This document shows, piece by piece, positions 54,596 through 56,103 of a stretch of 64,000 nucleotides of DNA. Within the stretch, counting starts at the first letter, position 1. Each line of letters begins with the position of its first letter. A program made the translations under genes and the position numbers. The notes beneath the pieces were generated by a model. That model was not told the origin of the DNA, ran no database searches, and saw nothing but the letters and a program-made list of their open reading frames with translations. Source of the stretch: Paenimyroides ummariense (lineage in GTDB: Bacteria > Bacteroidota > Bacteroidia > Flavobacteriales > Flavobacteriaceae); NCBI GenBank assembly GCA_040391585.1, contig JBEBXO010000002.1, positions 26,051-90,050 on the forward strand. The letters run 5' to 3'.

Positions 54596-54640
54596 TGTGT
54601 GTTTTTTACCACAGATTCTGTGTTAACCACCAAATAAAAT
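54596..54640. repeat. degenerate MITE-family segment (left-subterminal type)
   Basis: gttttttaccacagattctgtgtt (54601-54624) matches gttttttttaccacatagattctatatt of MITE copy 1. In the minus orientation, acagaatct-gtggtaaaaaac matches copy 2 acagaatctatgtggtgaaaaac. Confidence 0.5.
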
Positions 54641-54675
54641 ATGTATTTTTTATATATTTGAGATTTAAAACAGCT

Positions 54676-55728
54676 TTATGCTAGTTTCAAAGAGGGCTTG
54701 TCATTTTGTACAGCTCTCTTTTCTTTTTCATATTCAGGGTTATAGTTGATTTTGTTTTTCCAAAGGATAAAAGATAATTCCAATAATTTCCTTTGTACTG
54801 CTACTAATCCTTTCATTTTGATTCCGTGTTTTGCCACTAATCTCGCATATAAATCCTTGTGTATCGGATTGTATTTAACTGCTGATAACGATGGTAAGTG
54901 CAAGGCTTTCCGGATATGTCTATTTCCTTTTTTGGATAGTCTGGGTTTTCCTTTTACCGATGTTCCCGATTGCTTTTCTTTTATATCCATTCCTGCGTAG
55001 CTGGTCAATTGTTTCTTACTTCGTATGAGCTCAAAACCATTGGTTTCTGCTAAAATAATCGTTGCTGTTAGTTCACCCATTCCCGGAATGGTACACATGC
55101 GTTTTACTTGTTCTTTTATAATTGGGTTTTCTTTTAATATTACAGCTATTTCCTGTTTGATTTCCTGCTCTTGTTTGTTGAGGAATTTTATCAGTTCATT
55201 GATCCTTCTAATACTTCCTTCATGGGGAAAAGCCTCGCTTTCTTCTGCGTGTAAGCGATTTTTACAAACAGTTCGCTCATTTACTATCTGGTCTCGTTCA
55301 CGGGTTAATTGTTGTAAACTCCGATAAATATCATCAGGTTTGTTCCAATCTTCCAACTTTCTCTCTAATCCAAATCTTGTAATAGCTTCACTACAAGTCT
55401 TATCCGTTATGGTCTTCGTGTCCAAAGTACGCATATAATTACTGATTTTGTTGGGAAGAACAATACTTATATTACAGCCTTTTTCTATTATAAAACAAGC
55501 GAACTTCTGATGATAAACTCCGGTTGCTTCCATCACGATGCGGACGGGACATTCAACAATAGTATTCTTCACAAGCCATTTATACAAGGCCTCGAATCCT
55601 GTTTCTTTGTTCTTGAAAACCCGATAAGAATACAACTCAATGCTTAAATCTTCGTTTAGCCTGCCTAAACTCACTTCTAATTCTTTTTGGGAAACATCGA
55701 CTCCTAATACTTGCTTTAAAACTTTCAT
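54676..55728 (-). CDS. IS110 family transposase / DEDD recombinase
   Basis: N-terminal DEDD_Tnp_IS110 pattern (LGVDVSQKE..., VMEATGVYH). C-terminal Transposase_20 pattern (IPGMGELTATIILAE..., SYAGMD..., SG...G..R.SKKGN...R). ATG 55728 is preferred over the TTG at 55734 used by the track. Confidence 0.9.
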   Translation of the reverse strand: MKVLKQVLGVDVSQKELEVSLGRLNEDLSIELYSYRVFKNKETGFEALYKWLVKNTIVECPVRIVMEATGVYHQKFACFIIEKGCNISIVLPNKISNYMRTLDTKTITDKTCSEAITRFGLERKLEDWNKPDDIYRSLQQLTRERDQIVNERTVCKNRLHAEESEAFPHEGSIRRINELIKFLNKQEQEIKQEIAVILKENPIIKEQVKRMCTIPGMGELTATIILAETNGFELIRSKKQLTSYAGMDIKEKQSGTSVKGKPRLSKKGNRHIRKALHLPSLSAVKYNPIHKDLYARLVAKHGIKMKGLVAVQRKLLELSFILWKNKINYNPEYEKEKRAVQNDKPSLKLA

Positions 55729-55734
55729 TTCCAA

Positions 55735-55950
55735 CTTTTTTTGTGAATAAAACTAAAATTATAAGATAAAAAATCTCCCTTCGTCTTGTCTCCTGGTTGG
55801 ATATTCTGGATATAATCTTATGGTTGATTATTCCTTACATTCTGTTCAGACTCTAAAAGATAAAACAAGAATGAGGTTATATCTGTGGCTGAATATACAT
55901 TACTATGTTATTTAATGCACTGTCAACTCTCATCCTTTTTTATCTTATTT
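55735..55950 (-). ncRNA. candidate structured leader / bridge-RNA-like ncRNA of the IS110 element
   Basis: More than 200 nt lies upstream of the recombinase ATG with no ORF. 13-bp perfect inverted repeat ATAAGATAAAAAA (55761-55773) / TTTTTTATCTTAT (55936-55948). Bulged stem-loop 55857-55946. Inner hairpin GGAATAATC/GATTATATCC (minus strand, about 55808-55835). A TAAATTTG -7-like box on the minus strand sits near 55950-55957. Assignment is by analogy only. Confidence 0.3.
55881..55928. repeat. MITE-family right-end-like fragment #1
   Basis: atctgtggct, a 19-nt insert, then atttaatgcactgtcaact. Collinear with 56073-56103 and with the copy 1 right end (atctgtggat-attttataataccctacgggt). Confidence 0.5.
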
Positions 55951-56061
55951 TATTCAAATTTATAACTTTGCAAACATAGGAGATACACAGATATATTTTA
56001 AATCAGTTTAAACTTAAATTTATATTGGGTGCGACACATTCAATTATAATGTTTAGGTGAA

Positions 56062-56103
56062 GAAATCTGTGAATCTGTGGCTATTTAATAATGCTCTAAG
56101 GGC
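56062..56103. repeat. MITE-family right-end-like fragment #2
   Basis: gaaatctgtgaatctgtggctatttaataatgctctaagggc matches 34 of 42 positions of the copy 1 right end (11637-11678). Abuts the stop codon of the antiporter gene. Confidence 0.65.

Follow-up and report, generated by a model that had tools for sequence, protein, structure and literature searches.

An IS110-Family Insertion Sequence with a Predicted Bridge RNA Splits a Decayed MITE in Paenimyroides ummariense

Introduction

Repeats, REP among them, are known landing sites for insertion sequences (IS) of the IS110 family, and the way in which RNA underlies this behavior has been described (PMC1525189, PMC11208160, PMC11187229, PMC12288879, bioRxiv 10.64898/2026.03.19.712850). 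REP-targeting IS elements have been treated in general terms (PMC1525189). In IS621 of E. coli, a leader RNA located 5' of the recombinase gene carries a target-binding loop followed by a donor-binding loop (PMC11208160, PMC11208158). ISPpu9 and ISPpu10 of Pseudomonas putida are found in one conserved intergenic repeat, and ISPpu10 is reported to also need a hairpin in the target DNA (PMC12288879; bioRxiv 10.64898/2026.03.19.712850). IS4321 and IS5075 land in the terminal inverted repeats (TIRs) of Tn21-family transposons.

Here we describe an IS110-family element of Paenimyroides ummariense and the repeat in which it lies. All positions refer to a 64,000-nucleotide stretch of contig JBEBXO010000002.1 (assembly GCA_040391585.1), which we call the window; contigs of the same assembly are given as C5, C72, etc., homologous copies of the element as L030, L041, etc., and public sequencing runs as X1, X5, etc. 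According to our main reading, to which we assign a probability of roughly 0.85, a single decayed MITE variant of the IS982 type received, in its left subterminal motif, one insertion of a bridge-RNA-guided IS110-family element. That IS110 elements target repeats, and that RNA underlies this, is already established, and the locus adds little that is new in principle. What it offers is a natural example from the Flavobacteriaceae, in which a bridge-RNA guide can be read against 15 distinct contexts and 47 candidate sites in one genome.

Results

Locus and Limits of the Element

The IS, 1,368 bp long when the core is counted once, occupies minus-strand positions 54615-55982 and is flanked by two convergent genes, leuS (stop at 54532) and a gene for a Na+/H+ antiporter (stop codon at 56104-56106). 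Directly 3' of the leuS stop, and outside the repeat described below, is the leuS terminator hairpin, an inverted repeat followed by a T run (54543-54572, plus strand).

We placed the ends of the element by alignment to at least 12 homologous copies from Bacteroidota genomes and metagenomes, whose proteins are 57-99% identical. Every aligned copy begins with CTCCTATGTTTG and ends with ACACAGAATCT. The left-end terminus CTCCTATGTTTG (55971-55982, minus strand), which contains TATGTTTG, is invariant in all homologues (alignment columns 1-10). The element has no TIRs, since its ends, CTCCTATG... and ...CAGAATCT, are not inverted repeats of each other. Instead of a target duplication, every copy shows a CT at both junctions; in the window, this core (AG on the plus strand) is found at 54613-54614 and at 55981-55982. 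The IS-bearing contigs of three unrelated public runs diverge from the window at 54602-54609 and 55984-55999, which independently confirms the ends.

The assembly contains a single copy of the IS, and an exact-protein look-up for its recombinase returned the source locus only. No orthologous empty site was found for comparison: in the closest genomes, which show about 77% identity in leuS, the antiporter gene is not downstream of leuS.

The Interrupted Repeat

The sequences on either side of the IS are the two parts of one MITE copy. The left part (54585-54614, plus strand) ends with ...TTTTTTACCAC and the core AG (54613-54614), its outer TIR being missing or degenerate. The rest (55983-56103, plus strand) starts with what remains of the left motif (ATACACAGAT..., its second half) and continues through the interior and another copy of the motif to the right TIR (56085-56101). 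This other motif copy (56064-56079, core CT at 56074-56075) is inverted and unoccupied. Positions 55983-56103 align lengthwise with copies of a short MITE variant, MITE-B, on contigs C22, C4 and C10. MITE-B is present on four other contigs; it has both end regions in common with a long variant, MITE-A, and differs from it in the interior.

When the IS was removed and position 54614 was joined to 55983 (giving ...TTTTTTACCACAG followed by ATACACAGATATATTTTAAATCAG...), BLAST alignments to the MITE-B copies on C22 and C4 crossed the junction uninterrupted (75% over 160 nt, E = 1e-28), and in a multiple alignment the MITE-B copies could be followed over the span between the right TIR and the left subterminal motif. 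The uninterrupted repeat could thus be reconstructed, with the insertion point fixed at 54614/55983. Neither a left TIR nor a target-site duplication was found at this MITE copy, as the sequence to the left of 54585 belongs to the leuS terminator; the occupied copy is a decayed remnant.

An earlier interpretation of the locus (hereafter, the original prediction) had placed the IS in a nest of at least three degenerate MITE fragments, one left-subterminal and two right ends in tandem. Such a nest would have arisen by repeated MITE insertions before or after that of the IS. The string identities behind this picture do exist: two strings of the MITE right end, ATCTGTGG and TAATGCACT, recur identically within 55881-55928, and the left subterminal region of the MITE shares AGATTCTGT with positions 54613-54621. 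We aligned each of the pieces to MITE copy 1 (window 11395-11700), with 1000 shuffles per piece. The supposed left-subterminal piece, 54601-54624, scored 29 versus 15.1 ± 2.4, and no shuffle in 1000 did as well. All of this signal came from the flank 54585-54614 (0/1000), the IS part 54615-54640 being at background (563/1000); hence the assignment to the MITE holds up to 54614, and positions 54615-54624 are the end of the IS. The supposed first right-end fragment, 55881-55928, lies inside the IS. Its best local match was to another part of the MITE than the right end and was equalled by 39 of 1000 shuffles, so that the right-end alignment found no support. As for the stretch 55930-56060, read as MITE interior, its beginning (55929-55982) is IS sequence and matched copy 1 at background level (449/1000), whereas the remainder (55983-56061), also at background against copy 1 (786/1000), yet matches MITE-B on C22 and represents the MITE-B interior. 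The last piece, 56062-56103, was correctly recognized as a MITE right end (33/40 positions identical to that of copy 1, 0/1000 shuffles) that abuts the antiporter stop codon, ending one base before 56104-56106.

In proper alignment, then, similarity to the MITE rises above background in the flanks 54585-54614 and 56062-56103, and not in the parts belonging to the IS. Local alignment of the two IS ends to the MITE-A consensus gave 23 versus 22.0 ± 3.0 and 26 versus 23.5 ± 3.3, that is, shuffle background. Moreover, both of the pieces found within the IS occupy positions conserved among IS copies of other genera, and taking out 54615-55982 restores one continuous MITE-B. A nest of fragments is accordingly very improbable, and we read the repeat as one MITE-B copy split by the IS.

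We also considered that remnants of the IS might reside within the long MITE variant, as suspected from the recurring strings AGATTCTGT and AACATAG; alignment scores were at shuffle background, and this idea was discarded.

The MITE family itself is real, as originally proposed. Full copies are present in the window at about 11420-11700 and 34400-34690, copy 1 has 34 matches in the genome, and 14 long copies could be aligned. The MITE TIRs are common to a 967-bp element of the IS982 family (C62:6864-7830, termini ACCCGTAGTGCATTAT and inverse), whose ORF matches NF033520 transpos_IS982 with 148.6 bits (cut-off 130). The reading frame stops after 198 aa, so the IS982 transposase looks interrupted. 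This element is bordered by an 8-bp duplication (TCTTTATA).

Predicted Bridge RNA

The recombinase gene is preceded by a 254-nt non-coding leader at the left end of the IS. RNAalifold, applied to 11 homologous leaders, yielded two stem/internal-loop/stem domains, with compensatory changes in 23 of 45 pairs. A closing helix (55936-55948 with 55761-55773), in which compensatory changes were recognized by eye, encloses both the target-binding and the donor-binding domain. Together with the single-sequence fold of the leader RNA (-40.9 kcal/mol, z = -4.1), these data support a predicted bridge RNA of ~188 nt at 55761-55948 (minus strand). The target-binding loop comes first and the donor-binding loop second, which is the IS621-type layout. 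An Rfam search of positions 54400-56300 detected no bridge-RNA family, and only sub-threshold terminator-like matches were returned.

The region 55881-55928 is the target-binding internal loop plus the distal hairpin of this predicted RNA. The 5' strand of the loop, TGACAGTGCATTA (55913-55925, minus strand), contains the left target guide CAGTGCAT (55915-55922), and the 3' strand, CAGCCACAGATATA (55878-55891, minus strand), contains the right target guide CCACAG (55883-55888). What had been read as a right-end fragment can be resolved accordingly: 'atctgtggct' and 'atttaatgcactgtcaact' are the reverse complements of the 3' loop strand (with CCACAG) and the 5' loop strand, respectively, and the '19-nt insert' between them is the distal hairpin. 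To anyone reading the sequence alone, the guide loop, being a mimic of its target, can pass for a piece of the repeat.

To assign the donor-binding domain (55786-55847, minus strand), we used the consensus structure and compared the domain with the invariant IS ends. Reading the sequence directly, we find ACAGAAT, identical to the right-end terminus, in its 5' loop strand (55835-55847), and AGGAG, complementary to CTCCT at the left end, in its 3' loop strand (55786-55807).

Two further features of the target-binding domain were observed. In the single-sequence fold of 55892-55922 (minus strand), the family consensus stem is replaced by pairing between the left guide GUGCAUUA and UAAUGUAU in the distal hairpin; this predicted pairing may reflect self-occlusion of the guide, or chance. 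In addition, the 5' loop strand (55914-55922, minus strand) holds a 9/9 copy of the IS982-type TIR string AGTGCATTA (cf. window 11427-11435). The chance of such a match against the whole MITE, on both strands, is ~0.03. Since the TIR is absent near several occupied sites, the match is probably a coincidence or due to a shared GTGCAT core. The TIR was also tried as the true left target and rejected, being incompatible with the right guide and absent near the L030 and L050 sites.

IS-bearing contigs also occur in an RNA-library run (X15), a type of record that cannot show transcription.

Guide-Target Matching

Reverse complementation of the right guide CCACAG yields the core CT followed by GTGG. 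The left guide CAGTGCAT matches the commonest form of the motif, CTGTGCAT, at 7/8 positions, the mismatch falling at A, position 2 of the guide; it matches the sequence of the occupied site, CTGTGTAT, at 6/8 positions. No site with an 8/8 match was found.

We then compared 19 distinct loop pairs of related elements with the flanks of the respective elements, using 5000 permutations. For the right target (five bases before the loop AG), 80/85 positions matched, versus 38.6 ± 4.6 after permutation; for the left target (5' loop strand), 109/152 matched, versus 59.9 ± 5.6. In both cases, 0/5000 permutations did as well.

Left guides in the family occur in two registers. That of the window element, presumably one base off from most homologues, would be common to L063, L067 and L039, of which L063 and L067 match their targets 8/8. 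In this shifted register, the core-pairing bases of the window left guide are UA, not CU. The canonical register was rejected, as it gave 0/8 at the four sites scored (window, L030, L041 and L050).

The flanks of L031, L036, L054, L056 and L061-L066 present one site shape, NTGTGN-CT-NTGTGGT(TCAAA), in combination with different guides. This suggests either a preference at the protein level or related repeat families across Bacteroidota.

Occurrence of the Motif and Other Insertions of the Element

The motif GTGNATCTGTGG occurs 49 times in the 2.67-Mb assembly, versus ~0.5 occurrences expected from composition, and its reversed control 0 times. It was counted 21 times in a Paenimyroides genome and 9 times in a Myroides genome, both of which have the same IS, and 0 times in a congener. 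Both subterminal regions of the MITEs contain the motif, in inverted orientation, and so do tandem repeats elsewhere (C72, C5). The full-length IS982-type element on C62, whose TIRs are those of the MITEs, lacks it. Motif-bearing tandem arrays were seen at C72:3700-5000 (~230-270 nt spacing), C5:49490-49690 (92 nt) and C36:9924-10564 (217 nt), meaning that the repeats also stand head-to-tail and not only as single MITE insertions.

As the assembly has a single IS copy, we collected copies from other genomes and metagenomes instead. Roughly 4,700 homologues were recovered. The copies with an identical target loop were drawn from many metagenome contigs, besides one isolate genome and one MAG. 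Flanks recur in different combinations around the IS in the metagenome contigs L098, L099, L102 and L104. These are probably assembly chimeras across IS copies, the alternative being recombination between copies; contexts were therefore counted by their left-target side only.

This left 15 distinct left-target contexts. Ten read GTG[ACT]AT-CT, four are near variants (GAGCAT, ATGCAT, GTGCAAT and GTGAAAT) and one is unrelated. The right flanks of all near-identical copies begin with GTGG. Beyond ~20 nt, the sequence differs between contexts, indicating independent insertion events. The exception, L041 (from a Myroides MAG), lies in non-repeat sequence that has only ATCT..GTGG in common with the other sites and matches the left guide at 5/8 positions. 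The same junction is seen at loose contig ends from runs X5, X7 and X15, and in run X5 a MITE TIR is located 4 nt from the motif. In run X7, depth is higher for the IS contigs than for the flanks. The similarity to MITE-B is confined, in Paenimyroides baculatum and in L050, to the motif with ~25 nt of surrounding sequence.

The original prediction had suggested that a guide-RNA recombinase is tied to the repeat family, and this was supported: the target loop matches the motif, the occupied site and 14/15 other contexts carry the motif or a close variant, and a single context in 15 (L041) is unrelated sequence. If an arbitrary CT had merely happened to be in a repeat, with the likeness of the loop a coincidence, one would not expect the same junction in 14 other contexts from other genomes and metagenomes, nor the outcome of the permutation tests (0/5000). 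We give practically no credence to this explanation, with which the presence of only one IS copy in the assembly would agree.

A more serious objection is that AT-CT-GTGG might suffice, recognized by the 3' loop strand and the protein. The likeness of the 5' strand to CTGTGCAT would then be incidental, and the repeat would merely supply many ATCTGTGG sites. Indeed, ATCTGTGG occurs 127 times in the genome, with about 50 occurrences within the repeat, and the left guide fits in the shifted register only, never 8/8, and just 5/8 at L041. However, when the 564 CTGTGG sites of the genome were scored against the left guide, the distribution was bimodal: 47 sites reached 6-7/8, and 46 of these belong to the repeat motif. 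Furthermore, 14/15 contexts have GTG.AT or a near variant, though non-repeat ATCTGTGG sites are at least as many as those in the repeat, and left guides track left flanks family-wide, the 8/8 matches of L063 and L067 being in the shifted register. We thus consider targeting by the right guide alone to be unlikely, and favor a role for both guides. The 47 good sites are unoccupied in this assembly with its single IS copy.

The IS is 96-99% identical among Paenimyroides, Myroides and the present genome, which points to recent horizontal spread. The entire stretch occurs in runs X1-X4, which carry the label insect metagenome; the sources of runs with just the IS were feces, marine, soil, fertilizer, freshwater and wastewater.

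Recombinase

The recombinase gene (54676-55728, minus strand) encodes a 350-aa protein that matches PF01548 (E = 6.5e-21; N-terminal RuvC-like DEDD domain) and PF02371 (E = 1.8e-22; C-terminal Tnp domain), as well as the NCBIfam model NF033542, 'IS110 family RNA-guided transposase' (168 bits, cut-off 140). Its closest solved relatives in the PDB are ISCro4 (E = 4e-28) and IS621 (E = 9e-24).

By alignment, the active-site residues are D11, E67, D109 and S254 (S254-G255), the catalytic set of IS621 being D11, E60, D102, D105 and S241. At the position of D105, the fourth DEDD residue, which is essential in IS621, the protein has a cysteine, C112 (codon 55393-55395). The residue is Cys or Ala in all of the at least 30 clade members (TDKTCSEAI or TDKTASEAI; homologues L002-L067), and the clade alignment has no conserved acidic residue near this position. 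With its many independent insertions, the same clade is evidently a mobile one; it may therefore not need the fourth Asp, or a residue elsewhere in the fold may substitute for it. Together with the shifted left-guide register, the missing fourth Asp may interest engineers of such enzymes.

Discussion

By analogy with IS621 (PMC11208160, PMC11208158), the element would excise as a circle and express its leader RNA. The two guides of the target loop would together specify the dispersed motif ATCTGTGCAT-CT-GTGG of MITE subterminal regions and other repeats; the target loop would pair with this motif and the donor loop with the joined ends of the element, and strand exchange at the CT core would then give a simple insertion with CT at both junctions. 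At the junction of the putative circle, (T/C)TTG would be followed, after 20 nt, by TATGTTTG, forming a candidate promoter. In most homologues the right end has the (T/C)TTG string at a constant distance, and TATGTTTG is conserved. The combination presumably fits the Bacteroidota -33/-7 promoter consensus, with TATGTTTG as what we take to be a -7 box of the Bacteroidota type.

One may go further and speculate that this Bacteroidota clade of IS110 elements and host repeats of one architecture diversified together, in the absence of the fourth catalytic Asp and with many members targeting NTGTGN-CT-NTGTGGT, and that the AGTGCATTA copy in the loop reflects either another point of contact with the end of the MITE or the origin of the guide as a copy of target DNA. 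We regard this extended scenario as doubtful.

Compared with IS621 (PMC11208160, PMC11208158), the element has the same RuvC-like and Tnp domains and a 5' leader RNA whose target-binding loop precedes the donor-binding loop. In both systems, left guide and left target are of the same sense and the right guide complements the core plus the right target; both have a CT core, lack TIRs and leave no duplication beyond the core. The natural targets are in both cases a dispersed intergenic repeat, albeit REP for IS621 and here a MITE subterminal motif rather than a REP hairpin. Unlike IS621, our element resides in a Bacteroidota host, has a protein related to that of IS621 only at E 9e-24, with Cys in place of D105, and has a left guide that presumably works in a shifted register, with UA at the core positions. 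Its candidate junction promoter is TTTG/TAnnTTTG, versus one of the sigma-70 type.

A second parallel is with ISPpu9 and ISPpu10 of Pseudomonas putida (PMC12288879, bioRxiv 10.64898/2026.03.19.712850), whose copies likewise lie in one conserved intergenic repeat, providing 'safe' sites. In contrast to the repeat used by these elements, the motif described here is a tandem direct repeat of the ATCTGTG type with no obvious palindrome.

The nearest analogue of an IS targeting the end of another transposon is provided by IS4321 and IS5075. Like these and the seekRNA elements (PMC11187229), the present element is a DEDD-type IS landing in the end region of another transposon. The former, however, belong to the IS1111 group, with a guide RNA downstream and subterminal inverted repeats, whereas here the guide lies upstream. 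Furthermore, while IS4321 and IS5075 enter the TIR, the motif targeted here sits in the MITE interior next to the TIR and is lacking in the full-length IS982-type element.
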